Part shown: positions 2,591 to 54,544 of the stretch, piece after piece
Position numbering within the stretch: the first letter of the stretch is position 1
Layout of the letters: every line of letters begins with the position of its first letter
Assembly (NCBI RefSeq): GCF_003334815.1
Contig: NZ_QOWO01000007.1
DNA from: Escherichia coli
GTDB taxonomy: Bacteria; Pseudomonadota; Gammaproteobacteria; Enterobacterales; Enterobacteriaceae
Direction: 5' to 3' (one strand)
DNA: 64,000 nt
The notes under the pieces: generated by a model
Told to the model about the DNA's origin: nothing
The model's input: only the letters and a program-made list of their open reading frames with translations
The model's database searches: none
Program-made: the position numbers and the translations under genes

Positions 2591-2633
2591 GATTCTTCGC
2601 CTTTGGTTTGTTTTCCGCTCGTTATCAAAGCGT

Positions 2634-2648: not shown

Positions 2649-2801
2649 CCATTCGAATCTGTATGCAAACTAAATGTTTGTCAAATGTTAAATTGAGTTT
2701 GCAAAAATGAAAACCCACTGCTAGATTGAAAAAATATTGAACATAAAGGTCATTTAAAGCGCAGTAATGGCGATAATTTAGTCCACTTTGTGAGATTGAG
2801 C

Positions 2802-3566
2802 ATGGAAAATATAATGAACAATCCGGTTATCGGTGTCGTAATGTGCAGGAACAGGCTTAAGGGTCATGCGACCCAGACTCTGCAAGAAAAGTACCTGAAT
2901 GCCATCATCCATGCAGGCGGCTTGCCTATTGCGCTACCACATGCGCTGGCGGAACCGTCATTACTTGAACAACTTTTGCCGAAACTCGATGGCATTTATC
3001 TTCCTGGTAGTCCCAGCAATGTGCAGCCGCACCTATATGGTGAAAACGGCGATGAGCCTGACGCCGATCCCGGGCGTGATCTTCTGAGCATGGCGATAAT
3101 TAATGCCGCACTCGAAAGGCGCATCCCCATTTTCGCCATCTGCCGGGGTTTACAAGAACTGGTGGTGGCAACCGGTGGTTCGTTGCATCGCAAGCTGTGC
3201 GAACAGCCTGAATTGCTGGAACATCGGGAAGATCCCGAACTGCCGGTGGAACAGCAATATGCACCGTCGCATGAAGTTCAGGTTGAAGAGGGGGGATTAC
3301 TGTCTGCGTTGTTACCTGAATGTAGCAACTTTTGGGTAAACTCTCTACATGGACAAGGGGCGAAGGTCGTTAGCCCACGGTTGCGTGTTGAAGCTCGCTC
3401 GCCGGATGGCTTAGTTGAGGCGGTTAGCGTCATCAATCATCCTTTTGCGCTGGGCGTACAGTGGCACCCGGAATGGAACAGTAGCGAGTACGCGCTTTCG
3501 CGTATATTGTTCGAGGGCTTTATCACCGCTTGTCAGCACCATATCGCTGAAAAACAGCGACTCTGA
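2802..3566 (+). CDS. puuD: Gamma-glutamyl-GABA hydrolase (class I glutamine amidotransferase-like), 254 aa
   Basis: ORF 2790..3566 (GTG-extended) trimmed to ATG 2802 (MENIMNNPVIGVV...). Confidence 0.93.
   Translation: MENIMNNPVIGVVMCRNRLKGHATQTLQEKYLNAIIHAGGLPIALPHALAEPSLLEQLLPKLDGIYLPGSPSNVQPHLYGENGDEPDADPGRDLLSMAIINAALERRIPIFAICRGLQELVVATGGSLHRKLCEQPELLEHREDPELPVEQQYAPSHEVQVEEGGLLSALLPECSNFWVNSLHGQGAKVVSPRLRVEARSPDGLVEAVSVINHPFALGVQWHPEWNSSEYALSRILFEGFITACQHHIAEKQRL
2806..2820. promoter_or_regulatory. Candidate PuuR operator copy (AAAATATAATGAACA) overlapping puuD codons 2-7
   Basis: Exact 15-mer starting 4 nt after the puuD ATG; near-identical copy at 2634-2648. Confidence 0.5.
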
Positions 3567-3592
3567 CCACTACAGTTTAAGGAAATGCAAAT

Positions 3593-4150
3593 ATGAGTGA
3601 TGAGGGACTGGCGCCAGGAAAACGCTTGTCGGAAATCCGCCAGCAGCAGGGGCTTTCACAACGTCGTGCCGCCGAACTCTCCGGGCTGACTCACAGTGCT
3701 ATCAGTACGATAGAACAAGATAAAGTCAGCCCTGCCATCAGTACGCTGCAAAAGCTGCTGAAGGTGTATGGTCTGTCACTCTCGGAATTCTTTTCCGAGC
3801 CGGAAAAACCTGATGAGCCGCAGGTCGTCATTAATCAGGACGACTTAATTGAGATGGGTAGTCAGGGTGTGTCAATGAAGCTGGTTCATAACGGTAACCC
3901 GAATCGCACGCTGGCGATGATCTTTGAAACGTACCAGCCGGGCACAACCACTGGGGAAAGAATTAAGCATCAGGGTGAGGAAATAGGCACTGTACTGGAA
4001 GGTGAAATTGTTCTGACGATTAATGGTCAGGATTACCACCTCGTCGCGGGGCAAAGTTATGCCATTAATACCGGCATCCCGCACAGTTTCAGTAATACGT
4101 CGGCAGGTATTTGCCGAATTATCAGCGCCCATACGCCCACCACGTTTTAA
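3593..4150 (+). CDS. puuR: Putrescine-utilisation repressor PuuR (XRE-type HTH plus cupin domain), 185 aa
   Basis: ORF 3593..4150; N-terminal HTH (LSQRRAAELSGLTHSAISTIEQ), C-terminal cupin-like; AAGGA Shine-Dalgarno at 3579-3583. Confidence 0.93.
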   Translation: MSDEGLAPGKRLSEIRQQQGLSQRRAAELSGLTHSAISTIEQDKVSPAISTLQKLLKVYGLSLSEFFSEPEKPDEPQVVINQDDLIEMGSQGVSMKLVHNGNPNRTLAMIFETYQPGTTTGERIKHQGEEIGTVLEGEIVLTINGQDYHLVAGQSYAINTGIPHSFSNTSAGICRIISAHTPTTF

Positions 4151-4225
4151 TCTTTTTGTTCTGTAAGCCGGGTAAGCGCAATGCGCCCGGCAATCTATAC
4201 ACAAAATCATTCAAGTTGCATCAAG

Positions 4226-4310
4226 GCGGCAAGTGAGCGAATCCCGATGAGCTTACTCAGGTAAGTGATTCGGGGGAGCGAACGCAGCCAAGGCAGAGGC
4301 GGCTTGAAGG
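4226..4310. repeat. ERIC/IRU-like imperfect palindromic intergenic repeat
   Basis: GAGCGAATCCCGATGAGCTTACTCAGGTAAGTGATTCGGGGGAGCGAACGCAGCC: imperfect inverted arms, resembles the enterobacterial ERIC consensus core; lies in the puuR-puuC spacer. Confidence 0.4.
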
Positions 4311-4424
4311 ATGAAGTGTATATAAAGAATGTCGCCAGAAATAAACGGGCATACGGCCCGGGGATCTCTGCGCCCTGACGTTCACAAACTGCATATATCT
4401 GATAGACGTGAAACAGGAGTCATA

Positions 4425-5912
4425 ATGAATTTTCATCATCTGGCTTACTGGCAGGATAAAGCGTTAAGTCTCGCCATTGAAAACCGCTTATTTATTAACG
4501 GTGAATATACTGCTGCGGCGGAAAATGAAACCTTTGAAACCGTTGATCCGGTCACCCAGGCACCGCTGGCGAAAATTGCCCGCGGCAAGAGCGTCGATAT
4601 CGACCGTGCGATGAGCGCAGCACGCGGCGTATTTGAACGCGGCGACTGGTCACTCTCTTCTCCGGCTAAACGTAAAGCGGTACTGAATAAACTCGCCGAT
4701 TTAATGGAAGCCCACGCCGAAGAGCTGGCACTGCTGGAAACTCTCGACACCGGCAAACCGATTCGTCACAGTCTGCGTGATGATATTCCCGGCGCGGCGC
4801 GCGCCATTCGCTGGTACGCCGAAGCGATCGACAAAGTGTATGGCGAAGTGGCGACCACCAGTAGCCATGAGCTGGCGATGATCGTGCGTGAACCGGTCGG
4901 CGTGATTGCCGCCATCGTGCCGTGGAACTTCCCGCTGTTGCTGACTTGCTGGAAACTCGGCCCGGCGCTGGCGGCGGGAAACAGCGTGATTCTAAAACCG
5001 TCTGAAAAATCACCGCTCAGTGCGATTCGTCTCGCGGGGCTGGCGAAAGAAGCAGGCTTGCCGGATGGTGTGTTGAACGTGGTGACGGGTTTTGGTCATG
5101 AAGCCGGGCAGGCGCTGTCGCGTCATAACGATATCGACGCCATTGCCTTTACCGGTTCAACCCGTACCGGGAAACAGCTGCTGAAAGATGCGGGCGACAG
5201 CAACATGAAACGCGTCTGGCTGGAAGCGGGCGGCAAAAGCGCCAACATCGTTTTCGCTGACTGCCCGGATTTGCAACAGGCGGCAAGCGCCACCGCAGCA
5301 GGCATTTTCTACAACCAGGGACAGGTTTGCATCGCCGGAACGCGCCTGTTGCTGGAAGAGAGCATCGCCGATGAATTCTTAGCCCTGTTAAAACAGCAGG
5401 CGCAAAACTGGCAGCCGGGCCATCCACTTGATCCCGCAACCACCATGGGCACCTTAATCGACTGCGCCCACGCCGACTCGGTCCATAGCTTTATTCGGGA
5501 AGGCGAAAGCAAAGGGCAACTGTTGTTGGATGGCCGTAACGCCGGGCTGGCTGCCGCCATCGGCCCGACCATCTTTGTGGATGTGGACCCGAATGCGTCC
5601 TTAAGTCGCGAAGAGATTTTCGGTCCGGTGCTGGTGGTCACGCGTTTCACATCAGAAGAACAGGCGCTACAGCTTGCCAACGACAGCCAGTACGGCCTTG
5701 GCGCGGCGGTATGGACGCGCGACCTCTCCCGCGCGCACCGCATGAGCCGACGCCTGAAAGCCGGTTCCGTCTTCGTCAATAACTACAACGACGGCGATAT
5801 GACCGTGCCGTTTGGCGGCTATAAGCAGAGCGGCAACGGTCGCGACAAATCCCTGCATGCCCTTGAAAAATTCACTGAACTGAAAACCATCTGGATAAGC
5901 CTGGAGGCCTGA
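4425..5912 (+). CDS. puuC: Gamma-glutamyl-gamma-aminobutyraldehyde dehydrogenase (NAD(P)-dependent aldehyde dehydrogenase), 495 aa
   Basis: ORF 4329..5912 trimmed to ATG 4425 (MNFHHLAYWQDK...) with AGGAG at 4415-4419; ALDH motifs EAGGKSA and NQGQVCIAGTR. Confidence 0.93.
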   Translation: MNFHHLAYWQDKALSLAIENRLFINGEYTAAAENETFETVDPVTQAPLAKIARGKSVDIDRAMSAARGVFERGDWSLSSPAKRKAVLNKLADLMEAHAEELALLETLDTGKPIRHSLRDDIPGAARAIRWYAEAIDKVYGEVATTSSHELAMIVREPVGVIAAIVPWNFPLLLTCWKLGPALAAGNSVILKPSEKSPLSAIRLAGLAKEAGLPDGVLNVVTGFGHEAGQALSRHNDIDAIAFTGSTRTGKQLLKDAGDSNMKRVWLEAGGKSANIVFADCPDLQQAASATAAGIFYNQGQVCIAGTRLLLEESIADEFLALLKQQAQNWQPGHPLDPATTMGTLIDCAHADSVHSFIREGESKGQLLLDGRNAGLAAAIGPTIFVDVDPNASLSREEIFGPVLVVTRFTSEEQALQLANDSQYGLGAAVWTRDLSRAHRMSRRLKAGSVFVNNYNDGDMTVPFGGYKQSGNGRDKSLHALEKFTELKTIWISLEA

Positions 5913-5913
5913 A

Positions 5914-7194
5914 ATGACCGAACATACCAGCAGTTACTACGCCGCCAGTGCGAATAAATATGCACCATTCGACACGCTGAATGAGTCAATCACCTGCGAC
6001 GTTTGCGTGGTTGGCGGCGGCTATACCGGGCTCTCCTCCGCGCTGCATCTGGCGGAAGCGGGCTTTGACGTAGTGGTTCTCGAAGCCTCACGCATCGGCT
6101 TTGGCGCAAGCGGGCGCAATGGCGGACAGCTTGTGAACTCCTACAGCCGCGACATCGACGTGATCGAAAAAAGCTACGGCATGGACACCGCCCGTATGCT
6201 CGGCAGCATGATGTTCGAAGGTGGTGAGATCATCCGCGAACGTATCAAACGTTATCAGATTGACTGCGACTACCGCCCCGGCGGCCTGTTTGTGGCGATG
6301 AATGATAAACAGCTCGCCACACTTGAAGAGCAGAAAGAGAACTGGGAACGCTACGGCAATAAACAGCTGGAATTGCTGGACGCCAACGCCATTCGCCGTG
6401 AAGTAGCCAGCGATCGCTATACCGGTGCGCTGCTGGATCACAGCGGTGGGCATATTCATCCGCTAAACCTTGCCATTGGCGAAGCGGACGCCATCCGCCT
6501 CAACGGCGGGCGCGTGTATGAACTTTCTGCCGTGACGCAGATCCAGCACACCACGCCAGCCGTTGTGCGAACTGCCAAAGGTCAGGTGACGGCGAAGTAT
6601 GTGATTGTCGCCGGGAATGCGTATCTGGGCGATAAAGTAGAGCCGGAACTGGCGAAACGCAGCATGCCGTGCGGCACGCAGGTGATCACCACCGAACGGC
6701 TGTCGGAAGATTTAGCCCGTTCGCTGATCCCGAAAAACTACTGTGTGGAAGACTGTAACTATCTGCTTGATTACTACCGTCTTACCGCCGACAACCGCCT
6801 GCTGTACGGCGGCGGCGTGGTCTACGGCGCGCGCGACCCGGATGACGTTGAGCGCCTTGTGGTGCCGAAACTGCTGAAAACCTTCCCGCAGCTGAAGGGC
6901 GTGAAAATTGATTACCGCTGGACGGGCAACTTCCTGCTGACCCTGTCGCGTATGCCGCAGTTTGGTCGCCTCGATACCAACATCTATTACATGCAGGGCT
7001 ACAGCGGCCACGGCGTGACCTGTACTCATCTAGCCGGACGTTTGATTGCCGAACTGCTGCGCGGCGACGCCGAACGTTTCGATGCCTTCGCCAATCTGCC
7101 GCATTACCCGTTCCCCGGCGGGCGCACGCTGCGTGTGCCGTTTACCGCGATGGGCGCGGCGTATTACAGCCTGCGCGATCGTCTGGGCGTTTAA
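5914..7194 (+). CDS. puuB: Gamma-glutamylputrescine oxidase (FAD-dependent), 426 aa
   Basis: ORF 5914..7194; FAD-binding VVGGGYTGLSSA; starts 2 nt after the puuC stop. Confidence 0.93.
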   Translation: MTEHTSSYYAASANKYAPFDTLNESITCDVCVVGGGYTGLSSALHLAEAGFDVVVLEASRIGFGASGRNGGQLVNSYSRDIDVIEKSYGMDTARMLGSMMFEGGEIIRERIKRYQIDCDYRPGGLFVAMNDKQLATLEEQKENWERYGNKQLELLDANAIRREVASDRYTGALLDHSGGHIHPLNLAIGEADAIRLNGGRVYELSAVTQIQHTTPAVVRTAKGQVTAKYVIVAGNAYLGDKVEPELAKRSMPCGTQVITTERLSEDLARSLIPKNYCVEDCNYLLDYYRLTADNRLLYGGGVVYGARDPDDVERLVVPKLLKTFPQLKGVKIDYRWTGNFLLTLSRMPQFGRLDTNIYYMQGYSGHGVTCTHLAGRLIAELLRGDAERFDAFANLPHYPFPGGRTLRVPFTAMGAAYYSLRDRLGV

Positions 7195-7231
7195 TTTCCG
7201 ATTAACCGTGAAGAGTCAAAAGGTGTGAAAC

Positions 7232-8497
7232 ATGAGCAACAATGAATTCCATCAGCGTCGTCTTTCTGCCACTCCGCGCGGGGTTGGCGTGATGTGTAAC
7301 TTCTTCGCCCAGTCGGCTGAAAACGCCACGCTGAAGGATGTTGAGGGCAACGAGTACATCGATTTCGCCGCAGGCATTGCGGTGCTGAATACCGGACATC
7401 GCCACCCTGATCTGGTCGCGGCGGTGGAGCAGCAACTGCAACAGTTTACCCACACCGCGTATCAGATTGTGCCGTATGAAAGCTACGTCACCCTGGCGGA
7501 GAAAATCAACGCCCTTGCCCCGGTGAGCGGGCAGGCCAAAACCGCGTTCTTCACCACCGGTGCGGAAGCGGTGGAAAACGCGGTGAAAATTGCTCGCGCC
7601 CATACCGGACGCCCTGGCGTGATTGCGTTTAGCGGCGGCTTTCACGGTCGTACGTATATGACCATGGCGCTGACCGGAAAAGTTGCGCCGTACAAAATCG
7701 GCTTCGGCCCGTTCCCTAGTTCGGTGTATCACGTACCTTATCCGTCAGATTTACACGGCATTTCAACACAGGACTCCCTCGACGCCATCGAACGCTTGTT
7801 TAAATCAGACATCGAAGCGAAGCAGGTGGCGGCGATTATTTTCGAACCGGTGCAGGGCGAGGGCGGTTTCAACGTTGCGCCAAAAGAGCTGGTTGCCGCT
7901 ATTCGCCGCCTGTGCGACGAGCACGGTATTGTGATGATTGCTGATGAAGTGCAAAGCGGCTTTGCGCGTACCGGTAAGCTGTTTGCCATGGATCATTACG
8001 CCGATAAGCCGGATTTAATGACGATGGCGAAAAGCCTCGCGGGCGGGATGCCGCTTTCGGGCGTGGTCGGTAACGCGAATATTATGGACGCACCCGCGCC
8101 GGGCGGGCTTGGCGGCACCTACGCCGGTAACCCGCTGGCGGTGGCTGCCGCGCACGCGGTGCTCAACATTATCGACAAAGAATCACTCTGCGAACGCGCG
8201 AATCAACTGGGCCAGCGTCTCAAAAACACGTTGATTGATGCCAAAGAAAGCGTTCCGGCCATTGCTGCGGTACGCGGCCTGGGGTCGATGATTGCGGTAG
8301 AGTTTAACGATCCGCAAACGGGCGAGCCGTCAGCGGCGATTGCACAGAAAATCCAGCAACGCGCGCTGGCGCAGGGGCTGCTCCTGCTGACCTGTGGCGC
8401 ATACGGCAACGTGATTCGCTTCCTGTATCCGCTGACCATCCCGGATGCGCAATTCGATGCGGCAATGAAAATTTTGCAGGATGCGCTGAGCGATTAA
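7232..8497 (+). CDS. puuE: 4-aminobutyrate aminotransferase (class III PLP aminotransferase), 421 aa
   Basis: ORF 7232..8497; class-III aminotransferase sequence recognised. Confidence 0.93.
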   Translation: MSNNEFHQRRLSATPRGVGVMCNFFAQSAENATLKDVEGNEYIDFAAGIAVLNTGHRHPDLVAAVEQQLQQFTHTAYQIVPYESYVTLAEKINALAPVSGQAKTAFFTTGAEAVENAVKIARAHTGRPGVIAFSGGFHGRTYMTMALTGKVAPYKIGFGPFPSSVYHVPYPSDLHGISTQDSLDAIERLFKSDIEAKQVAAIIFEPVQGEGGFNVAPKELVAAIRRLCDEHGIVMIADEVQSGFARTGKLFAMDHYADKPDLMTMAKSLAGGMPLSGVVGNANIMDAPAPGGLGGTYAGNPLAVAAAHAVLNIIDKESLCERANQLGQRLKNTLIDAKESVPAIAAVRGLGSMIAVEFNDPQTGEPSAAIAQKIQQRALAQGLLLLTCGAYGNVIRFLYPLTIPDAQFDAAMKILQDALSD

Positions 8498-8514
8498 TAG
8501 CCCAAGGCAATAAT

Positions 8515-8597
8515 GTCTGATGCGCTGCGCTTATCAGGCCTGCAAACGACGTATTGATTATGTATGCCGAATAAAGCATTCACGCCGCATCCGGCAA
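8515..8597. repeat. REP (repetitive extragenic palindrome) pair
   Basis: TGATGCGCTGCGCTTATCAGGCCTGC and inverted TGCCGAATAAAGCATTCACGCCGCATCCGGCA between the convergent puuE and pspF. Confidence 0.7.
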
Positions 8598-8616
8598 GTT
8601 GTATTGCTCAACTTCG

Positions 8617-9594
8617 CTAAATCTGGTGCTTTTTCAACAACGCGCGGAACTGATGATAAGTTAACCCCAGTAATTCAGCCGCGCGCTTCTGGTTATATTT
8701 CCCTTGTTGCAAACTGAGTTGCAGCAACTCTTTTTCCTGCTGCATCTGAAACTCACGTAAATCCAGCGGCAGTGTTGGAAGCGAGGTGGTTTCTGAAACG
8801 GCGATAGCGTCTTCAGGCGGACGCCGTTTAAAGGGATCAATAATGATGTCATCAAGCGGATAATCGCTGGTGCCGTGGCGATACACTGAACGTTCCACCA
8901 CGTTTTTCAATTCACGAATATTTCCCGGCCAACGATAATTCAGCAATGTTTCTCTGGCGCGCTCCGTAAACCCCGGGAACAGAGGCAGCTTGATTTCCCG
9001 ACACATCTGGATGGCAAAGTATTCTGCCATCAACATTATGTCGCTTTCGCGCTCGCGCAGTGGTGGCAGTTGTACAACATCAAAAGCCAGTCGGTCGAGC
9101 AGGTCAGCGCGAAAAGTGCCTTCATTGACCATCGCCGGGAGATCGGCATTCGTCGCGCATACCAACCGCACATTCACCTGCAATGGCTGGCTGCCGCCAA
9201 CGCGCTCCAGTTCACCGTACTCAATCACGCGCAATAATTTCTCCTGCACCATCATCGGTGCCGTAGCGAGTTCATCAAGAAATAGCGTACCGCCGTCGGC
9301 ACGTTCAAATCTCCCTGGATGACGTTTTTGCGCACCGGTAAACGCCCCCGCTTCGTGACCAAACAGTTCGGAATCCAGCAGATTTTCATTTAACGCCGCG
9401 CAGTTAAGGGAAATAAACGGCCCTTGCCAACGGGAGGAGAGATAATGCAGGCGGCTGGCAATCAGCTCTTTACCGGTGCCGCGTTCGCCGATGATGAGCA
9501 CCGGTTTGTCCAGCGGTGCGAGATGCGAAACCTGTTCCAGCACTTCGAGAAAGCTGTTCGCCTCACCAAGTAAATTATCTTTGTATTCTGCCAT
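8617..9594 (-). CDS. pspF: Sigma54-dependent activator of the psp operon, 325 aa
   Basis: ORF 8617..9609 trimmed to ATG 9594 (MAEYKDNLLGE...); Walker A GERGTGKE and GAFTGA motif present. Confidence 0.93.
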   Translation of the reverse strand: MAEYKDNLLGEANSFLEVLEQVSHLAPLDKPVLIIGERGTGKELIASRLHYLSSRWQGPFISLNCAALNENLLDSELFGHEAGAFTGAQKRHPGRFERADGGTLFLDELATAPMMVQEKLLRVIEYGELERVGGSQPLQVNVRLVCATNADLPAMVNEGTFRADLLDRLAFDVVQLPPLRERESDIMLMAEYFAIQMCREIKLPLFPGFTERARETLLNYRWPGNIRELKNVVERSVYRHGTSDYPLDDIIIDPFKRRPPEDAIAVSETTSLPTLPLDLREFQMQQEKELLQLSLQQGKYNQKRAAELLGLTYHQFRALLKKHQI

Positions 9595-9688
9595 GATGAA
9601 ATTCGCCACTTGTTAGTGTAATTCGCTAACTCATCCTGGCATGTTGCTGTTGATTCTTCAATCAGATCTTTATAAATCAAAAAGATAA

Positions 9689-10429
<741 letters not shown>

Positions 10430-10482
10430 TAACATCCAGGCGGCGTCCGAACGCGCCGCCGCTCATCGTCTAAGGAGTACTT

Positions 10483-10707
10483 ATGAGCGCGCTATTTCTG
10501 GCTATTCCGTTAACCATTTTTGTGCTGTTTGTTTTACCGATCTGGTTATGGCTGCATTACAGCAATCGTTCTGGTCGCAGTGAATTGTCGCAAAGTGAGC
10601 AGCAGCGATTAGCGCAACTGGCTGATGAAGCAAAACGGATGCGCGAACGTATTCAGGCGCTGGAATCTATTCTTGATGCAGAACATCCGAACTGGAGGGA
10701 TCGCTAA
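10483..10707 (+). CDS. pspB: Phage shock protein B, 74 aa
   Basis: ORF 10483..10707; single N-terminal TM helix. Confidence 0.93.
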   Translation: MSALFLAIPLTIFVLFVLPIWLWLHYSNRSGRSELSQSEQQRLAQLADEAKRMRERIQALESILDAEHPNWRDR

Positions 10708-11066
10708 TGGCGGGCATTAATCTCAATAAAAAATTATGGCGTATTCCACAGCAGGGCATGGTCCGCGGCGTCTGCGCCGGGATTGCCAACTATTTTGATG
10801 TACCGGTAAAACTGGTGCGTATCCTGGTGGTGCTGTCGATTTTCTTCGGTCTGGCGCTGTTTACCCTGGTTGCTTACATCATTTTGTCATTTGCGCTTGA
10901 TCCAATGCCGGACAACATGGCCTTTGGTGAGCAGCTACCTTCCAGCAGCGAATTGCTGGATGAAGTCGACCGTGAACTGGCGGCAAGTGAAACGCGTTTA
11001 CGCGAGATGGAACGTTATGTCACTTCCGATACTTTCACGTTACGTAGCCGTTTCCGTCAACTGTGA
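10707..11066 (+). CDS. pspC: Phage shock protein C, 119 aa
   Basis: ORF 10707..11066; start overlaps the pspB stop. Confidence 0.93.
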
Positions 11067-11074
11067 GGAAAGTT

Positions 11075-11296
11075 ATGAATACTCGCTGGCAACAGGCCGG
11101 GCAAAAGGTAAAGCCTGGTTTCAAATTAGCAGGCAAGCTGGTACTTCTTACCGCACTGCGCTATGGCCCGGCGGGTGTGGCGGGCTGGGCGATAAAATCA
11201 GTTGCTCGCCGACCGCTGAAAATGTTGCTGGCTGTGGCGCTGGAACCGCTGTTAAGTCGGGCTGCTAATAAACTGGCACAGCGTTATAAAAGGTGA
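11075..11296 (+). CDS. pspD: Phage shock protein D, 73 aa
   Basis: ORF 11063..11296 (GTG-extended) trimmed to ATG 11075 ([10 protein letters not shown]...) with GAGGA Shine-Dalgarno. Confidence 0.88.
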
Positions 11297-11370
11297 GGGG
11301 AGTTTCGCAAAAATTGTTAAATCTCAGGCGTATAATGGATGGCAATTTTCATCCATAGAAGGACGCTTAC

Positions 11371-11685
11371 ATGTTTAAAAAAGGCTTACTTGCTCTGGCA
11401 CTGGTGTTTTCACTGCCCGTTTTCGCCGCTGAACACTGGATCGATGTTCGTGTTCCAGAGCAGTATCAGCAAGAGCACGTTCAGGGGGCCATCAATATTC
11501 CCCTGAAGGAAGTGAAAGAGCGCATTGCCACCGCCGTTCCGGATAAAAACGACACCGTGAAAGTGTATTGCAATGCCGGACGCCAGTCAGGGCAAGCAAA
11601 AGAGATCCTTAGCGAGATGGGATATACCCACGTTGAGAACGCCGGTGGCCTGAAAGACATCGCAATGCCGAAGGTCAAAGGTTAA
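11371..11685 (+). CDS. pspE: Thiosulfate sulfurtransferase (rhodanese) PspE, 104 aa with signal peptide
   Basis: ORF 11371..11685; rhodanese active-site Cys in YCNAGRQS. Confidence 0.93.
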   Translation: MFKKGLLALALVFSLPVFAAEHWIDVRVPEQYQQEHVQGAINIPLKEVKERIATAVPDKNDTVKVYCNAGRQSGQAKEILSEMGYTHVENAGGLKDIAMPKVKG

Positions 11686-11700
11686 AAGAATTCACCATGA

Positions 11701-11726
11701 GCGGCGCTTATGCGCCGTTTTTTTTT
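11701..11726 (+). terminator. Rho-independent terminator after pspE
   Basis: CGGCGC-ttat-GCGCCG stem-loop followed by a 9-T run. Confidence 0.7.
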
Positions 11727-11897
11727 CTGTCACACCTTATTTACATCCCCATAGATTATTTGCGTCAGCTCACAAATACGCTTTTTCCCTGGTAAAAAAT
11801 GATTTCCTGCGTGACTAAAACCCTTGTGCTCAATTGACAGTTTATTTTCTGCGGAGTAGTCTCTCGTTTCATGGGACCGCTACCACGGAAAGGCAAC

Positions 11898-13577
11898 ATG
11901 AAACAGAAAATTACGGATTACCTGGACGAAATCTACGGTGGAACATTTACCGCAACTCATTTACAGAAACTTGTAACGCGTCTTGAGAGTGCGAAACGAT
12001 TAATTACACAGCGACGTAAAAAACACTGGGATGAAAGTGATGTCGTGTTAATTACCTATGCCGATCAATTTCACAGCAATGATTTAAAACCATTACCCAC
12101 ATTTAATCAGTTTTACCATCAATGGCTGCAAAGCATTTTTTCACATGTTCATTTGTTGCCGTTTTATCCATGGTCATCTGATGATGGCTTTTCGGTAATT
12201 GATTATCATCAGGTCGCCAGTGAAGCGGGGGAGTGGCAGGATATTCAGCAACTCGGTGAATGCAGTCATTTAATGTTTGATTTTGTCTGCAACCATATGT
12301 CGGCAAAAAGTGAATGGTTTAAAAACTATTTACAACAGCATCCAGGTTTTGAAGATTTTTTTATTGCCGTTGACCCGCAAACCGATCTCAGCGCCGTCAC
12401 TCGCCCGCGTGCGTTACCGTTATTAACGCCATTCCAGATGCGCGATCATTCAACGCGCCATTTATGGACCACCTTTAGTGACGATCAAATTGACCTGAAT
12501 TACCGTAGCCCTGAAGTGTTGCTGGCGATGGTGGATGTTTTACTCTGTTACCTTGCGAAAGGTGCTGAGTATGTCCGCCTGGATGCCGTTGGCTTTATGT
12601 GGAAAGAGCCGGGAACAAGCTGCATCCATCTGGAAAAAACACATCTGATTATCAAACTGTTACGGTCGATTATTGATAACGTTGCGCCAGGTACAGTGAT
12701 CATTACCGAGACCAATGTTCCGCATAAAGACAACATTGCTTACTTTGGCGCAGGCGATGACGAAGCACATATGGTGTACCAGTTCTCGCTGCCGCCACTG
12801 GTGCTGCATGCGGTGCAAAAACAGAACGTTGAGGCGCTTTGTGCGTGGGCGCAAAACCTGACACTACCTTCCAGCAACACCACCTGGTTTAACTTCCTCG
12901 CCTCTCACGATGGCATCGGGCTAAACCCGCTACGGGGCTTGTTGCCTGAAAGCGAAATATTAGAGCTGGTCGAGGCGTTACAGCAGGAAGGTGCATTAGT
13001 AAACTGGAAAAATAATCCCGACGGTACACGCAGTCCGTATGAAATAAATGTGACCTATATGGATGCGTTAAGCCGCCGTGAGAGTAGCGATGAAGAACGT
13101 TGCGCCAGGTTTATCCTTGCCCATGCGATTTTGTTAAGTTTCCCCGGTGTGCCAGCGATATATATTCAAAGTATTCTTGGCTCGCGTAATGATTACGCAG
13201 GTGTCGAAAAAATCGGATATAACCGTGCGATTAACCGTAAAAAATATCACAGTAAAGAGATAACCCGAGAACTGAACGATGAAGCTACATTAAGGCATGC
13301 GGTATATCATGAGTTGTCGCGTTTAATTACACTTCGTCGCAGCCATAACGAGTTTCATCCGGATAATAATTTTACCATTGATACGATTAATTCATCCGTA
13401 ATGCGTATTCAAAGAAGTAACGCTGATGGTAATTGTCTGACTGGATTGTTTAATGTCAGTAAAAATATTCAGCATGTAAATATTACTAATCTGCATGGTC
13501 GGGATCTGATTAGTGAAGTTGATATATTGGGTAATGAAATAACGCTGCGCCCCTGGCAGGTTATGTGGATTAAATAA
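11898..13577 (+). CDS. ycjM: GH13 sucrose-phosphorylase-like enzyme (reported as glucosylglycerate phosphorylase), 559 aa
   Basis: ORF 11871..13577 trimmed to ATG 11898 (MKQKITDYLDEIYG...); AT-rich relative to downstream genes. Confidence 0.9.
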   Translation: MKQKITDYLDEIYGGTFTATHLQKLVTRLESAKRLITQRRKKHWDESDVVLITYADQFHSNDLKPLPTFNQFYHQWLQSIFSHVHLLPFYPWSSDDGFSVIDYHQVASEAGEWQDIQQLGECSHLMFDFVCNHMSAKSEWFKNYLQQHPGFEDFFIAVDPQTDLSAVTRPRALPLLTPFQMRDHSTRHLWTTFSDDQIDLNYRSPEVLLAMVDVLLCYLAKGAEYVRLDAVGFMWKEPGTSCIHLEKTHLIIKLLRSIIDNVAPGTVIITETNVPHKDNIAYFGAGDDEAHMVYQFSLPPLVLHAVQKQNVEALCAWAQNLTLPSSNTTWFNFLASHDGIGLNPLRGLLPESEILELVEALQQEGALVNWKNNPDGTRSPYEINVTYMDALSRRESSDEERCARFILAHAILLSFPGVPAIYIQSILGSRNDYAGVEKIGYNRAINRKKYHSKEITRELNDEATLRHAVYHELSRLITLRRSHNEFHPDNNFTIDTINSSVMRIQRSNADGNCLTGLFNVSKNIQHVNITNLHGRDLISEVDILGNEITLRPWQVMWIK

Positions 13578-13590
13578 AAAGGAACATCTC

Positions 13591-14883
13591 ATGATTAAAT
13601 CAAAAATCGTGCTGTTATCAGCACTGGTTTCATGCGCCCTGATTTCAGGCTGTAAAGAAGAAAATAAAACGAATGTATCCATCGAATTTATGCATTCTTC
13701 GGTGGAGCAGGAGCGCCAGGCCGTTATCAGTAAATTGATTGCCCGTTTTGAAAAAGAAAACCCTGGCATCACCGTTAAGCAAGTGCCCGTGGAAGAAGAT
13801 GCCTATAACACTAAAGTCATTACTCTTTCACGTAGCGGTTCGCTGCCGGAAGTGATCGAAACCAGCCATGACTACGCCAAAGTGATGGACAAAGAGCAGC
13901 TTATCGATCGCAAAGCGGTTGCCACAGTCATCAGCAACGTTGGTGAAGGCGCGTTTTACGATGGCGTACTGCGTATTGTGCGTACCGAAGATGGTAGCGC
14001 ATGGACCGGTGTTCCTGTCAGCGCCTGGATTGGCGGTATCTGGTATCGCAAAGATGTGCTGGCAAAAGCGGGGCTTGAGGAGCCGAAAAACTGGCAACAG
14101 CTGCTGGACGTTGCACAGAAACTGAATGACCCGGCGAATAAAAAATACGGCATTGCGCTGCCTACAGCAGAAAGCGTGTTGACGGAACAATCCTTCTCCC
14201 AGTTTGCGTTATCCAACCAGGCTAACGTCTTTAACGCCGAAGGCAAAATCACCCTTGATACACCAGAGATGATGCAGGCACTGACCTATTACCGCGACCT
14301 TGCTGCCAACACTATGCCGGGTTCTAACGACATCATGGAAGTGAAAGACGCCTTTATGAACGGCACCGCGCCGATGGCGATTTACTCCACCTATATCCTT
14401 CCGGCTGTGATTAAAGAAGGCGACCCGAAAAACGTCGGTTTCGTGGTGCCAACCGAGAAAAACTCTGCGGTCTACGGCATGTTGACCTCGCTGACCATTA
14501 CCGCCGGGCAAAAGACCGAAGAGACGGAAGCAGCAGAAAAATTTGTCACCTTTATGGAGCAGGCAGACAACATTGCCGACTGGGTGATGATGTCGCCAGG
14601 TGCTGCGCTGCCGGTGAATAAAGCGGTGGTGACTACCGCCACCTGGAAAGACAACGACGTTATTAAGGCGCTGGGTGAACTACCGAATCAGCTAATCGGT
14701 GAACTGCCAAATATTCAGGTTTTTGGCGCAGTAGGGGATAAAAACTTTACCCGCATGGGTGATGTGACGGGTTCTGGCGTGGTGAGTTCAATGGTGCATA
14801 ACGTCACCGTGGGTAAAGCCGATCTCTCTACTACGCTGCAAGCGAGCCAGAAAAAACTGGATGAACTGATCGAACAGCACTAA
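13591..14883 (+). CDS. ycjN: ABC transporter periplasmic sugar-binding lipoprotein, 430 aa
   Basis: ORF 13591..14883; signal peptide with lipobox LISGC. Confidence 0.92.
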   Translation: MIKSKIVLLSALVSCALISGCKEENKTNVSIEFMHSSVEQERQAVISKLIARFEKENPGITVKQVPVEEDAYNTKVITLSRSGSLPEVIETSHDYAKVMDKEQLIDRKAVATVISNVGEGAFYDGVLRIVRTEDGSAWTGVPVSAWIGGIWYRKDVLAKAGLEEPKNWQQLLDVAQKLNDPANKKYGIALPTAESVLTEQSFSQFALSNQANVFNAEGKITLDTPEMMQALTYYRDLAANTMPGSNDIMEVKDAFMNGTAPMAIYSTYILPAVIKEGDPKNVGFVVPTEKNSAVYGMLTSLTITAGQKTEETEAAEKFVTFMEQADNIADWVMMSPGAALPVNKAVVTTATWKDNDVIKALGELPNQLIGELPNIQVFGAVGDKNFTRMGDVTGSGVVSSMVHNVTVGKADLSTTLQASQKKLDELIEQH

Positions 14884-14903
14884 ACCCAGGACAGGAATCC
14901 GCA

Positions 14904-15785
14904 ATGAACAGGCTTTTTTCAGGTCGTTCCGATATGCCCTTTGCGCTGCTGCTTCTCGCGCCCAGCTTATTACTGCTGGGCGGTCTGGTGGCGTGGCCGA
15001 TGGTGTCGAATATCGAAATCAGTTTTTTACGTCTGCCGCTCAATCCCAACATCGAGTCAACGTTTGTTGGGGTGAGCAACTATGTGCGTATCCTCTCCGA
15101 TCCCGGCTTCTGGCATTCGCTGTGGATGACGGTCTGGTATACCGCGCTGGTGGTGGCGGGCAGCACCGTGCTCGGGCTGGCGGTGGCGATGTTTTTCAAC
15201 CGCGAGTTCCGCCTGCGCAAAACCGCGCGTTCGCTGGTGATCCTCTCCTACGTAACGCCGTCCATTTCGCTGGTGTTCGCCTGGAAATACATGTTCAACA
15301 ACGGCTACGGCATTGTTAACTACCTCGGCGTCGATCTTCTGCATCTCTATGAGCAGGCACCGCTGTGGTTCGATAATCCGGGCAGTAGCTTTGTGCTGGT
15401 GGTGCTGTTCGCCATCTGGCGCTACTTCCCGTATGCCTTTATCTCGTTTCTGGCGATTTTGCAGACCATCGACAAATCGCTGTACGAAGCGGCAGAGATG
15501 GATGGCGCTAATGCCTGGCAACGGTTTCGTATCGTCACGCTGCCCGCAATTATGCCGGTCCTGGCGACGGTGGTGACACTGCGCACCATCTGGATGTTCT
15601 ACATGTTCGCGGATGTTTATTTGCTGACGACCAAGGTCGATATTCTCGGTGTATATCTCTACAAAACCGCCTTTGCCTTTAATGATTTAGGAAAAGCGGC
15701 GGCGATCTCGGTGGTGCTCTTCATCATTATTTTCGCTGTCATTCTGCTGACCAGGAAACGGGTGAACCTCAATGGCAACAAATAA
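14904..15785 (+). CDS. ycjO: ABC sugar transporter permease, 293 aa
   Basis: ORF 14904..15785; multi-TM with EAA loop (YEAAEMDGANAWQRF). Confidence 0.92.
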   Translation: MNRLFSGRSDMPFALLLLAPSLLLLGGLVAWPMVSNIEISFLRLPLNPNIESTFVGVSNYVRILSDPGFWHSLWMTVWYTALVVAGSTVLGLAVAMFFNREFRLRKTARSLVILSYVTPSISLVFAWKYMFNNGYGIVNYLGVDLLHLYEQAPLWFDNPGSSFVLVVLFAIWRYFPYAFISFLAILQTIDKSLYEAAEMDGANAWQRFRIVTLPAIMPVLATVVTLRTIWMFYMFADVYLLTTKVDILGVYLYKTAFAFNDLGKAAAISVVLFIIIFAVILLTRKRVNLNGNK

Positions 15786-16614
15786 ACGCACACTCAGTCG
15801 CATCGGTTTTTACTGCGAGCTGGCGCTGTTTCTCATCATCACGCTGTTTCCATTTTTTGTGATGCTGATGACCTCGTTCAAGGGCGCGAAAGAGGCGATC
15901 TCACTGCATCCTACGCTGCTGCCGCAGCAGTGGACGCTGGAGCATTACGTCGACATTTTTAACCCGATGATTTTCCCGTTTGTCGACTACTTCCGTAACA
16001 GTCTGGTGGTGTCTGTGGTTTCATCCGTGGTGGCGGTATTCCTCGGCATTCTTGGGGCTTACGCGCTTTCCCGCCTGCGCTTTAAAGGTCGGATGACCAT
16101 CAACGCCAGCTTTTACACGGTGTATATGTTCTCTGGCATTTTGCTGGTGGTGCCGCTTTTCAAAATCATCACCGCGCTTGGCATTTACGACACTGAGATG
16201 GCGCTGATCATCACCATGGTGACGCAAACTCTGCCCACCGCCGTGTTTATGCTGAAAAGCTACTTCGACACCATCCCCGATGAGATCGAAGAAGCGGCGA
16301 TGATGGATGGCCTCAACCGTCTGCAAATTATCTTCCGCATCACCGTGCCGTTGGCGATGTCCGGGCTGATATCCGTGTTCGTCTACTGCTTTATGGTGGC
16401 GTGGAACGACTATCTGTTTGCGTCGATTTTCCTCTCCAGCGCCAGCAATTTCACCTTACCGGTGGGCCTGAACGCGCTGTTCAGTACGCCAGATTACATC
16501 TGGGGACGGATGATGGCGGCCTCACTGGTGACCGCATTGCCGGTGGTGATTATGTATGCGCTTTCGGAACGTTTTATTAAGAGTGGTTTGACCGCCGGTG
16601 GCGTGAAGGGCTAA
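15772..16614 (+). CDS. ycjP: ABC sugar transporter permease, 280 aa
   Basis: ORF 15772..16614; EAA loop (EEAAMMDGLNRLQ); overlaps the ycjO 3' end. Confidence 0.92.
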   Translation: MATNKRTLSRIGFYCELALFLIITLFPFFVMLMTSFKGAKEAISLHPTLLPQQWTLEHYVDIFNPMIFPFVDYFRNSLVVSVVSSVVAVFLGILGAYALSRLRFKGRMTINASFYTVYMFSGILLVVPLFKIITALGIYDTEMALIITMVTQTLPTAVFMLKSYFDTIPDEIEEAAMMDGLNRLQIIFRITVPLAMSGLISVFVYCFMVAWNDYLFASIFLSSASNFTLPVGLNALFSTPDYIWGRMMAASLVTALPVVIMYALSERFIKSGLTAGGVKG

Positions 16615-16644
16615 AGCGGCCAGTTTCTTTACAAGGAGTTTTAA

Positions 16645-17697
16645 ATGAAAAAGTTAGTAGCCACAGCACCGCGTGTTGCTGCGCTGGTTGAGTATGAAGA
16701 TCGGGCGATTTTAGCTAATGAAGTGAAGATCCGCGTGCGTTTCGGCGCACCGAAACACGGAACGGAAGTGGTCGACTTCCGCGCCGCCAGCCCGTTTATT
16801 GATGAAGACTTTAACGGCGAATGGCAGATGTTCACTCCGCGTCCGGCAGATGCGCCGCGCGGCATTGAGTTTGGCAAATTCCAGCTTGGCAACATGGTGG
16901 TTGGCGACATTATCGAGTGCGGCAGCGACGTTACCGACTACGCGGTGGGCGACAGCGTATGCGGCTACGGCCCGCTCTCCGAGACGGTCATCATTAACGC
17001 TGTGAATAACTACAAGCTGCGCAAAATGCCGCAAGGCAGCTCCTGGAAAAACGCCGTCTGCTACGACCCGGCGCAGTTTGCCATGAGCGGCGTGCGCGAT
17101 GCCAACGTGCGCGTAGGGGATTTTGTGGTGGTGGTAGGGCTTGGCGCAATCGGTCAAATTGCCATCCAACTGGCTAAACGCGCTGGCGCTTCTGTGGTGA
17201 TTGGCGTCGATCCTATCGCCCATCGCTGTGATATTGCCCGTCGCCACGGCGCGGATTTCTGCCTTAACCCCATCGGCACTGATGTAGGTAAAGAGATCAA
17301 AACGCTGACCGGCAAGCAGGGTGCCGATGTGATTATCGAAACCAGCGGCTACGCCGACGCGCTGCAATCGGCGCTCCGCGGTCTGGCTTATGGCGGCACC
17401 ATCTCCTATGTCGCGTTTGCCAAGCCGTTTGCCGAAGGTTTTAACCTCGGACGCGAAGCGCATTTCAATAACGCCAAAATTGTCTTCTCTCGCGCGTGCA
17501 GCGAACCGAACCCGGATTATCCGCGCTGGAGCCGCAAGCGTATTGAAGAAACCTGTTGGGAACTGCTGATGAACGGTTATCTCAATTGCGAAGATTTAAT
17601 CGACCCGGTGGTGACCTTTGCCAATAGCCCGGAAAGCTATATGCAGTATGTCGACCAGCATCCGGAACAGAGCATCAAAATGGGCGTTACGTTTTAA
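16645..17697 (+). CDS. ycjQ: Zn-dependent medium-chain dehydrogenase (reported D-guloside 3-dehydrogenase), 350 aa
   Basis: ORF 16645..17697; MDR/alcohol dehydrogenase fold. Confidence 0.92.
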   Translation: MKKLVATAPRVAALVEYEDRAILANEVKIRVRFGAPKHGTEVVDFRAASPFIDEDFNGEWQMFTPRPADAPRGIEFGKFQLGNMVVGDIIECGSDVTDYAVGDSVCGYGPLSETVIINAVNNYKLRKMPQGSSWKNAVCYDPAQFAMSGVRDANVRVGDFVVVVGLGAIGQIAIQLAKRAGASVVIGVDPIAHRCDIARRHGADFCLNPIGTDVGKEIKTLTGKQGADVIIETSGYADALQSALRGLAYGGTISYVAFAKPFAEGFNLGREAHFNNAKIVFSRACSEPNPDYPRWSRKRIEETCWELLMNGYLNCEDLIDPVVTFANSPESYMQYVDQHPEQSIKMGVTF

Positions 17698-34909: not shown

Positions 34910-36523
34910 ATGAAGCACTCTGTTTCAGTCACGTGTTGTGCGCTGTTGGTCAGCAGCATTTCTCTTTCGTATGCTGCAGAAGTTCCGAGCGGCACAGTAC
35001 TGGCAGAGAAGCAGGAGCTGGTGCGCCACATTAAAGATGAGCCTGCGTCGCTGGATCCCGCTAAAGCCGTGGGCCTGCCAGAGATTCAGGTCATTCGCGA
35101 TCTGTTTGAAGGTCTGGTGAATCAGAACGAAAAAGGGGAGATTGTCCCCGGCGTTGCGACTCAGTGGAAAAGTAATGACAACCGTATCTGGACTTTTACC
35201 CTGCGCGATAACGCAAAATGGGCGGATGGCACACCGGTAACGGCGCAAGATTTTGTCTACAGCTGGCAACGTCTGGTGGACCCAAAAACATTGTCGCCAT
35301 TTGCATGGTTTGCCGCGCTGGCGGGAATCAACAACGCACAGGCGATTATTGATGGTAAAGCTACGCCTGACCAGCTTGGCGTCACCGCAGTTGATGCCCA
35401 TACTTTGAAAATTCAGCTTGATAAACCGTTGCCGTGGTTTGTGAATTTAACCGCTAACTTTGCCTTCTTCCCGGTGCAAAAAGCCAACGTAGAAAGCGGT
35501 AAAGAGTGGACGAAACCCGGAAATCTGATCGGCAATGGCGCTTATGTTCTTAAAGAGCGCGTAGTCAATGAAAAACTGGTCGTGGTACCGAATACCCATT
35601 ATTGGGATAACGCCAAAACGGTACTGCAAAAAGTGACCTTCCTGCCAATTAATCAGGAATCCGCAGCCACTAAGCGTTACCTCGCGGGGGATATTGATAT
35701 CACCGAATCCTTCCCGAAAAATATGTATCAGAAGCTGTTGAAGGATATTCCGGGGCAGGTTTATACGCCGCCGCAGCTCGGGACCTATTATTATGCGTTT
35801 AACACGCAAAAAGGGCCGACGGCAGATCAGCGCGTTCGTCTGGCATTAAGTATGACGATAGATCGCCGCCTGATGACCGAAAAAGTATTAGGGACGGGCG
35901 AAAAGCCAGCGTGGCATTTTACACCAGATGTTACCGCGGGATTTACGCCGGAACCTTCGCCGTTTGAACAAATGAGTCAGGAAGAACTGAATGCGCAGGC
36001 AAAAACTTTGTTGAGCGCAGCTGGTTATGGTCCGCAAAAACCGCTGAAGCTGACGCTTTTGTATAACACTTCAGAAAACCATCAAAAAATTGCGATTGCT
36101 GTAGCATCGATGTGGAAAAAGAACCTTGGCGTAGATGTTAAATTGCAAAATCAGGAATGGAAAACCTATATCGATAGCCGTAACACCGGCAATTTTGATG
36201 TTATCCGCGCCTCGTGGGTGGGGGATTATAATGAACCCTCCACTTTCCTGACATTATTAACGTCAACGCATTCAGGAAATATTTCACGCTTTAACAATCC
36301 GGCATATGACAAAGTTCTGGCCCAGGCATCGACGGAAAATACCGTTAAAGCGCGTAATGCCGATTACAACGCGGCAGAAAAAATCCTCATGGAGCAAGCA
36401 CCGATTGCACCAATTTATCAATATACCAATGGACGATTAATCAAGCCGTGGCTGAAAGGTTATCCCATTAATAATCCTGAAGATGTGGCGTACAGTCGGA
36501 CTATGTATATTGTGAAGCATTGA
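34910..36523 (+). CDS. mppA: Periplasmic murein tripeptide-binding protein (ABC SBP family 5), 537 aa
   Basis: ORF 34910..36523; signal peptide; AGAGGGA Shine-Dalgarno. Confidence 0.93.
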   Translation: MKHSVSVTCCALLVSSISLSYAAEVPSGTVLAEKQELVRHIKDEPASLDPAKAVGLPEIQVIRDLFEGLVNQNEKGEIVPGVATQWKSNDNRIWTFTLRDNAKWADGTPVTAQDFVYSWQRLVDPKTLSPFAWFAALAGINNAQAIIDGKATPDQLGVTAVDAHTLKIQLDKPLPWFVNLTANFAFFPVQKANVESGKEWTKPGNLIGNGAYVLKERVVNEKLVVVPNTHYWDNAKTVLQKVTFLPINQESAATKRYLAGDIDITESFPKNMYQKLLKDIPGQVYTPPQLGTYYYAFNTQKGPTADQRVRLALSMTIDRRLMTEKVLGTGEKPAWHFTPDVTAGFTPEPSPFEQMSQEELNAQAKTLLSAAGYGPQKPLKLTLLYNTSENHQKIAIAVASMWKKNLGVDVKLQNQEWKTYIDSRNTGNFDVIRASWVGDYNEPSTFLTLLTSTHSGNISRFNNPAYDKVLAQASTENTVKARNADYNAAEKILMEQAPIAPIYQYTNGRLIKPWLKGYPINNPEDVAYSRTMYIVKH

Positions 36524-36573: not shown

Positions 36574-37605
36574 TTAGCGACCCTGTTCCGGCGGTGTAAT
36601 GTTATCCATATACAGCGTCTGGCTGGGGAAGGCAAAGTCCGCGCCGTGTGACTGTACAATATCGATAATCTTCAAATAAACGTCTTGCTGTGCAGCAAGC
36701 CATTCAGCCCATACCGTGGTTTTGGTAAAGCAATAAACCATAATATTCAATGAAGAGTCAGCAAACTGGTTGAAATAAACCAGTAAGGTTTGTCGCTGGT
36801 CGATGGCCGGGTGATTTTTCAGCATCTCACGTACAGCTTCGACAATAACGCCCACTTTTGCCGCATCCTCATAACGTAAACCAATGGTCGTGGTAATGCG
36901 GCGGTTGGTCATTCGTCCTGGGTTTTCTACGCTGATCGACGAAAACAGCGAGTTCGGTACGTACAATGGACGATTATCAAAGGTCGTAATTTTGGTAATT
37001 CGCCAGCCAATTTCCGCTACTGTACCTTCGATATTTCTGTCCGGTGAACGGATCCAGTCGCCAATACTGAAAGGACGGTCGAAATAGAGCATAATCCCGG
37101 AAAAGAAGTTACTCAGAATATCTTTACCGGCCATACCGACAGCCAGACCACCAATACCACCAAAGGTCAGCAAGCCAGAAAGGCTCATGCCGAAATGTTC
37201 GCCATAAAGCAGAACAAGCACCACAATAATGGTGATTTTGATGATACGCGACATAATCCGCGCACTGGTGATATCGCGACCTTTTTTAATCTGCTGTTTT
37301 TCAAACTGATTAATCAGCAGAAATAGCTTAATCGTCAGAATAACCGCAATCAGGGACGTACAGATAAAATCGATAACGCCTGGGGTGATAAATTTGAGTT
37401 TATAGTTTTCTATAACATAATTAATAATGCTACCAACAGCACTGATAATTATGGTGTAGATTAAAAATTGCACCGCATGGAATAAAAATCCTTTTCTTTT
37501 ACGATTTCCACGGCGAAACCAAAAGCTCATCAGAATCAATGCTGCGCAGCTACCGAAAATAATGACCAGATTAAGCGCATTATTTGTAAACAGTTCAGCG
37601 ATCAT
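36574..37605 (-). CDS. ynaI: MscS-family mechanosensitive channel, 343 aa
   Basis: ORF 36574..37605; multi-TM N-terminus plus MscS beta domain. Confidence 0.92.
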
Positions 37606-37848
37606 TGTTTTATCAGGCTCCTCCAGATAATTGTCGTCATGCCGGAAACCCCTGGCGGGGCTATTTTACCGCGACAATTCATTCAGATCATCAATAGTCA
37701 GGGAAGGAAGTAGCAACATTAGCTAACTAATCAATGCGTTGATTGTAAATCCAGCTAAGAGGTGAGGTTTTCAGAGCAGACAACGGTGAAATGTCATGGT
37801 ATTGTTACGTTTAGGTAACAAGAAATTTGTCTGCACAAGGATTACATC

Positions 37849-38106
37849 ATGATTATGGCGAAACTGAAGTCAGCGAAAGGGAAGAAATTTCTCTTTGGTT
37901 TGTTGGCGGTTTTCATTATTGCGGCGTCGGTTGTGACTCGCGCGACCATCGGCGGCGTTATAGAACAGTACAATATTCCGCTGTCTGAGTGGACGACATC
38001 AATGTATGTGATTCAGTCATCGATGATTTTTGTTTATAGCCTGGTCTTTACTGTGTTGCTGGCAATCCCGTTGGGAATTTATTTCCTTGGCGGCGAAGAG
38101 CAGTAA
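37849..38106 (+). CDS. ynaJ: Small inner-membrane protein YnaJ, 85 aa
   Basis: ORF 37849..38106; two hydrophobic helices. Confidence 0.88.
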   Translation: MIMAKLKSAKGKKFLFGLLAVFIIAASVVTRATIGGVIEQYNIPLSEWTTSMYVIQSSMIFVYSLVFTVLLAIPLGIYFLGGEEQ

Positions 38107-46133: not shown

Positions 46134-46142
46134 AACTGCATA

Positions 46143-46235
46143 AAAAAATAGAGTCTGTCGACATCCGCCAGACTCTACAGTACACACAGCAGTGCATCCG
46201 CGTCTTAAATCCGGCATTGTCTCCTCTGCGCCGGT
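46143..46235 (-). ncRNA. mcaS: Small RNA McaS (IsrA)
   Basis: Minus strand reads ACCGGCGCAGAGGAGACAAUGCCGGAUUUAAGACGCGGAUGCACUGCUGUGUGUACUGUAGAGUCUGGCGGAUGUCGACAGACUCUAUUUUUUU: multiple GGA motifs and an intrinsic terminator; abgR-smrA spacer. Confidence 0.8.
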
Positions 46236-49612: not shown

Positions 49613-49734
49613 GCAGGTGAATGCAACGTCAAGCGATGGGCGTTGCGCTCCATATTGTCTTACTTCCTTTTTTGAATTACTGCATAGCACAATTGATTCG
49701 TACGACGCCGACTTTGATGAGTCGGCTTTTTTTT
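49613..49734 (+). ncRNA. fnrS: FNR-activated small RNA FnrS (about 122 nt)
   Basis: GCAGGUGAAUGCAACGUCAAGCGAUGGGCG... ending in the GCCGACU-uugaug-AGUCGGC hairpin plus a U8 run. Confidence 0.85.
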
Positions 49735-51496: not shown

Positions 51497-52432
51497 TTAT
51501 TTCACTTCAACCACATTCAGCCGTAACTCATCCAACTGATTTTCATCTTCTTCTGGCTGCCAGCACGCCGGTTGTAGTGGGATCTCTTCGCGATCAAACG
51601 CCAGATCACCCCCGTTAACCACTTCAGAACCGTGGGTGATGCCTTTGAAATCGAACAGGTTGGTATCGCACAGATGCGACGGCACCACATTCTGCATCGC
51701 GCTGAACATCGTCTCGATACGCCCTGGATAACGTTTATCCCAGTCACGCAACATGTCAGCAATCACCTGACGTTGCAGGTTAGGCTGTGAACCGCACAGG
51801 TTGCACGGAATAATCGGGAACGCTTTTGCATCGGCAAATCGCTGAATATCTTTCTCGCGGCAGTAGGCCAGCGGACGAATAACGATATGTTTGCCATCAT
51901 CGCTCATCAGTTTCGGAGGCATACCTTTCATCTTACCGCCGTAGAACATATTTAAGAACAACGTTTGCAGGATATCGTCACGATGGTGACCCAACGCGAT
52001 CTTCGTCGCCCCCAGTTCCGTTGCGGTACGATAAAGGATACCGCGACGAAGGCGAGAACACAGTGAGCAAGTGGTTTTGCCCTCTGGAATCTTCTCTTTC
52101 ACGATACCGTAAGTATTCTCTTCAACAATCTTGTACTCAACGCCCAGCTTTTCAAGATACTCGGGCAGAACGTGTTCCGGGAAGCCCGGTTGCTTTTGAT
52201 CGAGGTTAACAGCCACCAGCGAAAAATTGATTGGCGCGCTTTGCTGCAAATTGCGCAGAATCTCCAGCATGGTATAGCTGTCTTTACCCCCGGAGAGGCA
52301 AACCATGATGCGATCGCCTTCTTCAATCATATTGAAGTCAGCAATGGCTTCGCCCACGTTACGACGCAGACGTTTTTGTAATTTGTTCAGGTTGTATTGT
52401 TCTTTCTTACTAATTTCTTGATTTTGCGACAT
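51497..52432 (-). CDS. ttcA: tRNA 2-thiocytidine(32) synthetase TtcA, 311 aa, uninterrupted
   Basis: ORF 51497..52432; PP-loop CLSGGKDS and Cys-x-x-Cys motifs; N-terminus [17 protein letters not shown]. Confidence 0.93.
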
Positions 52433-54317: not shown

Positions 54318-54544
54318 TGAATAAATCCTTTAGTTATTTTATTTGCCTTTTATCCCCATTTCGGGGAGTGAAAACATCCTAAAGGAGAAGTTCAGTTAGC
54401 CGATAAATATCATTTGTTACGCCTTAAGTAAAACCTTAATCAAATAATTCCTCTGAAATGATAATAAGTCTGGTGAATGTATCGAAGATAATACATACAA
54501 AATAAAAATTATACTTTTAATTTGCTATACGTTATTCTGCGCGG

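Follow-up and report, generated by a model that had tools for sequence, protein, structure and literature searches.

An unoccupied IS5 target in the ynaI-ynaJ spacer of an Escherichia coli chromosome closely related to K-12

Introduction

The insertion sequence IS5 uses a 4-bp YTAR target, which is duplicated on insertion. One of its copies in Escherichia coli K-12 lies between the genes ynaI (b1330) and ynaJ (b1332). The annotation of MG1655 (NC_000913.3) places the 'insertion sequence:IS5F' at 1396044-1397238 of the chromosome, together with insH4 (b1331), which is annotated as IS5 transposase.

This copy has appeared in the literature in more than one setting. In BW25113, ynaI/ynaJ is one among 11 IS5 loci, and a scar-free deletion of the IS5 copy found there has been described (PMC11677980). 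In W3110 stocks, 'the known IS5 element b1331' recombines with an IS5 near ogt, and the genes ynaJ-uspE-fnr are lost as a result; for MG1655 stocks, the same paper refers to fnr deletions described earlier (PMC2072959). The paper describing the YnaI channel does not mention an IS5 upstream of ynaI (PMC3508906).

Here, the same spacer is described in a 64-kb stretch of E. coli DNA, which we call the window, and is compared with K-12 and with a collection of complete E. coli genomes. An earlier note on this DNA, made from its letters alone, had drawn attention to the missing IS5. We find that the window carries the site uninterrupted, with a single copy of the target that is duplicated in K-12, and that this is the usual state of the locus in the species.

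The ynaI-ynaJ spacer in the window

The genes in this part of the window follow the order mppA, ynaI (minus strand), ynaJ (plus strand), and then uspE and fnr (both on the minus strand). Their coordinates, where given, and those of the other features discussed are collected in Table 1. The open reading frames (ORFs) place the limits of the spacer at 37606 and 37848, in agreement with the 243 bp given in the earlier note. The absence of a transposase from the spacer, which had also been stated there, is borne out as well: the ORF list holds no ORF of at least 40 aa wholly inside the spacer, and a blastn search with the K-12 IS5F as query (E<=1e-3) gives no match to IS5 anywhere in the 64-kb window.

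Table 1. Positions of the features discussed, in window coordinates
Feature	Position	Strand	Description	Basis or comparison
mppA	34910-36523	+		
ynaI	36574-37605	-	Low-conductance mechanosensitive channel, 343 aa	ORF and RefSeq name in matching genomes
ynaI-ynaJ spacer	37606-37848		Divergent intergenic region, 243 bp, 42% G+C, uninterrupted	
GGAAGTAGC	37706-37714	+	9-bp target	Duplicated by IS1 in WEM25
CTAA, unoccupied IS5 target	37723-37726	+	4-bp target	Duplicated either side of IS5F in K-12
Second CTAA of the tandem	37727-37730	+		Independent 916-bp IS5-family insertion in FDAARGOS_943
ynaJ	37849-38106	+	DUF2534 small membrane protein, 85 aa	ORF and RefSeq name
McaS	46140-46235	-	Small RNA, usual position	Rfam
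FnrS	49613-49730	+	Small RNA, usual position	Rfam
ttcA	51497-52432	-	Intact, 311 aa, native 5' end	
Unoccupied Rac attachment core	52383-52425		In the 5' end of ttcA	43-bp block overlap versus K-12
MicC	54542-54662	+	Small RNA, usual position	Rfam

Within the spacer lies the tandem CTAA, CTAACTAA, at 37723-37730. The longer string AGCTAACTAATC, which includes both CTAA copies, had been recognized in the earlier note as containing the IS5 target motif; the string is present, but it occupies 37721-37732 rather than 37724-37735, an offset of 3 bp. Taken by itself, the CTAA motif is statistically unremarkable and represents no more than chance. The tandem CTAACTAA occurs twice in the 64-kb window against 0.76 expected occurrences, a count reached by 19 of 100 shuffles, and the window-wide density is about 3 per kb for CTAA/TTAG and about 8 per kb for YTAR. 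The motif is relevant only through its use as a target in K-12.

The stretch from 37690 to 37760 is A+T-rich, with 36.6% G+C compared with 50.6% for the window. A search of 37500-37950 for sigma-70 promoters gave no consensus-like match. A terminator-like hairpin can be drawn on the plus strand at 37640-37667, with its stem at 37640-37657 (TGCCGGAAACCCCTGGCG) followed by GGGCTATTTT. The hairpin lies in antisense orientation to the ynaI leader, some 35 bp before the start codon of that gene, and shuffled sequences yield about as many. Scanned against Rfam, the full 64 kb yields McaS, FnrS and MicC only, with zero matches in the ynaI-ynaJ spacer.

Comparison with K-12 MG1655

A blast comparison of the window with positions 1358319-1446576 of MG1655 yields three colinear blocks of 99.96-99.97% identity. 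Over the 64 kb, the two sequences differ by 21 substitutions and one 1-bp indel, and only two structural differences separate them, namely the absence of IS5F and the absence of the Rac prophage from the window. The blocks overlap at both of these places: the first and second share exactly 4 bp, the CTAA at 37723-37726, and the second and third share 43 bp, 52383-52425, where K-12 holds Rac.

At the first place, the K-12 locus ynaI-IS5F(insH4)-ynaJ (NC_000913.3 1394891-1397622) has the same genes as the window, in the same order and orientation. What the window lacks in comparison is the IS5 itself, 1195 bp long, and the duplicate of its 4-bp target. The earlier note had stated, correctly, that MG1655 carries an IS5 here: the NC_000913.3 annotation has IS5F/insH4 between these two genes, and the copy is not at a different locus.

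The junctions in K-12 can be read as CTAA/GGAAGGTGCG...CGCACCTTCC/CTAA-CTAATC, where the slashes mark the ends of the element, or, with longer flanks, as ...ACATTAG-CTAA/GGAAGGTGCGAACAAG...CTTATTCGCACCTTCC/CTAA-CTAATCAATG.... The 16-bp terminal inverted repeats of IS5F, GGAAGGTGCGAACAAG and GGAAGGTGCGAATAAG (the latter as reverse complement), match at 15 of 16 bases. On either side of the 1195-bp element stands a direct duplication of CTAA, found at 6041-6044 and 7240-7243 of the K-12 extract (L001). In K-12, a single CTAA stands to the left of IS5 and a pair to its right, which identifies the first CTAA of the tandem as the target. The alignment with K-12 that the earlier note had proposed thus locates the insertion at 37723-37726, with a 4-bp duplication in K-12. 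The insertion point is upstream of both genes, at 117 bp from the start codon of ynaI and 122 bp from that of ynaJ. When IS5 and one CTAA are removed from the K-12 sequence, the remainder is the spacer of the window at 243 of 243 bases by exact string comparison. The locus therefore offers everything that identifies an empty IS5 allele: a YTAR target, a 4-bp duplication, IS5 terminal repeats together with an IS5 transposase, and identity of the excised sequence with the uninterrupted one.

An empty site in an assembly might also arise if IS5 were present in the organism and had been collapsed out of the assembled sequence. IS copies commonly cause assembly errors, and short-read assemblies often lose repeats; beyond this general experience, nothing specific speaks for such a collapse here. 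A repeat normally breaks the contig, so that a seamless join with one target copy is unexpected, and it is this join that makes a collapse unlikely. In addition, the window is continuous over 64 kb and holds zero IS5 fragments, and its junction matches that of thousands of complete, mostly long-read genomes. We consider a collapsed IS5 extremely improbable, and we take the join at the single CTAA as the true structure of this chromosome.

The second structural difference lies in ttcA. In the window, uspF and ompN come immediately after ttcA. In K-12, Rac (annotated at 1411899-1434958, 23 kb) displaces the native 5' end of ttcA, which is annotated as the pseudogene ttcC, whereas the ttcA of the window is whole. 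The prophage that the earlier note had described as missing is indeed absent from the window, with ttcA intact and the aligned blocks joining across the site. This absence says little about lineage because the ttcA attachment site is unoccupied in 2491 of the 5426 complete E. coli genomes. In roughly half of E. coli genomes, something is integrated or altered at the ttcA site.

In the window, ycjV (22503-23585) is an intact ORF for a 360-aa ABC-transporter ATPase. One G of this ORF, at 23457 of the window, is missing from K-12 (position 1381775), where the resulting frameshift gives the annotated pseudogene pair ycjV/ymjB.

The markers of the K-12 laboratory lineage that the window fails to show are thus IS5F, Rac in ttcA, the ycjV frameshift and a near-zero SNP distance. 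The substitutions, together with a ycjV that is intact and a ttcA that keeps its native 5' end, show that the window is a very close relative of K-12 without being derived from it. The earlier note had suggested a non-K-12 or pre-insertion lineage on the strength of the missing IS5 and the missing Rac together. 'Non-K-12' is the better description of the two, and the missing Rac adds little support to it.

Distribution of the empty and occupied sites

The survey was carried out on 5426 complete E. coli genomes. The query for the empty site was the uninterrupted 122-bp core around the target, and the query for the left junction in K-12 consisted of 60 bp of flank and 60 bp of IS5 (L001 5985-6104; the right junction is at 7180-7299).

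The uninterrupted core is present in 5058 of 5426 genomes (about 93%), including O157:H7 strains. The K-12 left junction was found in 355 of the 5426, against 346 for the right one. Of the 355 junction carriers, about 64 were sampled (60 right-junction records listed and 4 full-length left-junction records), and all of these are K-12-type laboratory strains or derivatives, as assigned by strain name or source field or, for a few carriers such as BHUCD01, by IS5 copy number and size of the genome only. The sampled carriers include MG1655, C600, J53, DH5alpha, DH1, RR1, NCM3722, AG100 and NEB strains; among the remaining ones, a rare wild strain may share the insertion. The left junction count exceeds the right one by 9 genomes, and these left-only genomes may carry rightward IS5-mediated deletions like that of ynaJ-uspE-fnr.

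The wild E. coli strains NCTC86, ATCC 8739 and CP8-3_Sichuan have the same 243-bp spacer and gene arrangement as the window, and show no difference from it at the site. The first of these is Escherich's strain, and its 243-bp spacer is empty. In many genomes, the 851 bp around the spacer are 100% identical to the window. Two genomes, NCTC86 (about 1.4 kb) and FDN-24 (about 1.3 kb), have extra DNA within the 25-kb query region; as their spacers are both empty, at 243 bp, this DNA is inserted elsewhere.

Origin of the empty site

The window almost certainly shows the ancestral, never-occupied spacer of a wild-type chromosome near K-12, with IS5 having inserted in the K-12 laboratory lineage. On this account, one IS5 copy would have transposed into the first CTAA of CTAACTAA in that lineage, with the 4-bp target duplication that is usual for IS5, and the window would present the ynaI-ynaJ site as it was before the event. 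What can be read directly from the genomes is where IS5 inserted, its inverted repeats and 4-bp duplication, the identity between the K-12 spacer after excision and that of the window, and the population frequencies. As to the direction of the event, an insertion in K-12 rather than a loss elsewhere is indicated, because the empty allele is that of the majority of the species, because the occupied allele has been seen, among the carriers sampled, only in one laboratory lineage, and because the window bears independent markers that are not those of K-12.

It could be argued that a K-12-like ancestor of this strain once had the IS5 and lost it through precise excision or an engineered deletion, either of which would have left a single CTAA. 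Precise excision would yield exactly the sequence seen at the site in the window, indistinguishable from one that was never occupied; the identity of the window to K-12 is as high as 99.97%; and scar-free IS5-deleted derivatives of K-12 do exist (PMC11677980). However, 21 substitutions, an intact ycjV, no Rac and a native ttcA 5' end form a combination that a K-12 derivative would not have. The empty site is also the majority state (5058/5426), and the occupied state has been seen, among the carriers sampled, only in K-12 laboratory strains. A secondary loss of IS5 is accordingly very improbable in our view, and we keep to a site that was never occupied.

The empty site is an ordinary and already known strain difference, IS5F (b1331) being an insertion of the K-12 laboratory lineage. 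In practice, the IS5 locus between ynaI and ynaJ provides a clean marker to tell K-12 derivatives from their close wild relatives. Strains with the empty site do not have the IS5 copy that is involved in the ynaJ-uspE-fnr deletion of some K-12 stocks; compared with MG1655, the window is without the IS5 partner of this deletion, as reported for some W3110/MG1655 stocks (PMC2072959).

Other insertions at the same patch

The patch around the target has received other elements as well. An IS1 is annotated in the same stretch in WEM25, NCTC11121 and NCTC9966, with the junctions read in WEM25 only, where the IS1 has duplicated GGAAGTAGC. In FDAARGOS_943, a 916-bp element sits within the second CTAA, with a duplication of 2-3 bp (TA or CTA), and a 10-bp deletion is found nearby in the same genome. 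In RefSeq, this element is annotated as a transposase of the IS5 family, with programmed frameshift; at the DNA level it is unrelated to IS5. Three different insertion sequences are thus found within 24 bp, at 37706-37730 (extracts L004 1586-2501 and L005 918-1690). In about six further genomes, the spacer core is interrupted by something besides the three insertions described.

For these comparisons, the IS junctions were read directly and strings were compared exactly. A MAFFT alignment of the half-spacers that bear insertions was discarded, as their left halves were misaligned.

The clustering of insertions is a mild curiosity and no evidence of anything new. That 37706-37730 serves insertion sequences repeatedly as a landing pad, and that IS5F might alter the expression of ynaI or ynaJ by splitting their divergent control region, is a reading we consider unlikely, although an effect of IS5F on the expression of either gene is conceivable from its position. 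If it were true, data obtained in K-12, such as a YnaI activity detectable only on overexpression, would be unrepresentative of wild E. coli.

Close wild relatives

The pig isolate CP8-3_Sichuan aligns colinearly with the window over its full length and lacks both IS5 and Rac. Over the 64 kb, it differs from the window by 77 substitutions and 1 indel. The substitutions are unevenly spread: 73 of the 77 fall in window positions 1-17000, the puu-psp-ycjM region, and the two sequences are identical over 27000-51900. In 1-17000, the window is nearer to K-12 than to CP8-3_Sichuan, and the divergence from CP8-3_Sichuan in this part looks like a recombination patch. No genome of the collection reaches a perfect-match score over window positions 1-25000. 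Over 27000-51900, the top score is held jointly by CP8-3_Sichuan, ETEC4073 and D53-1.
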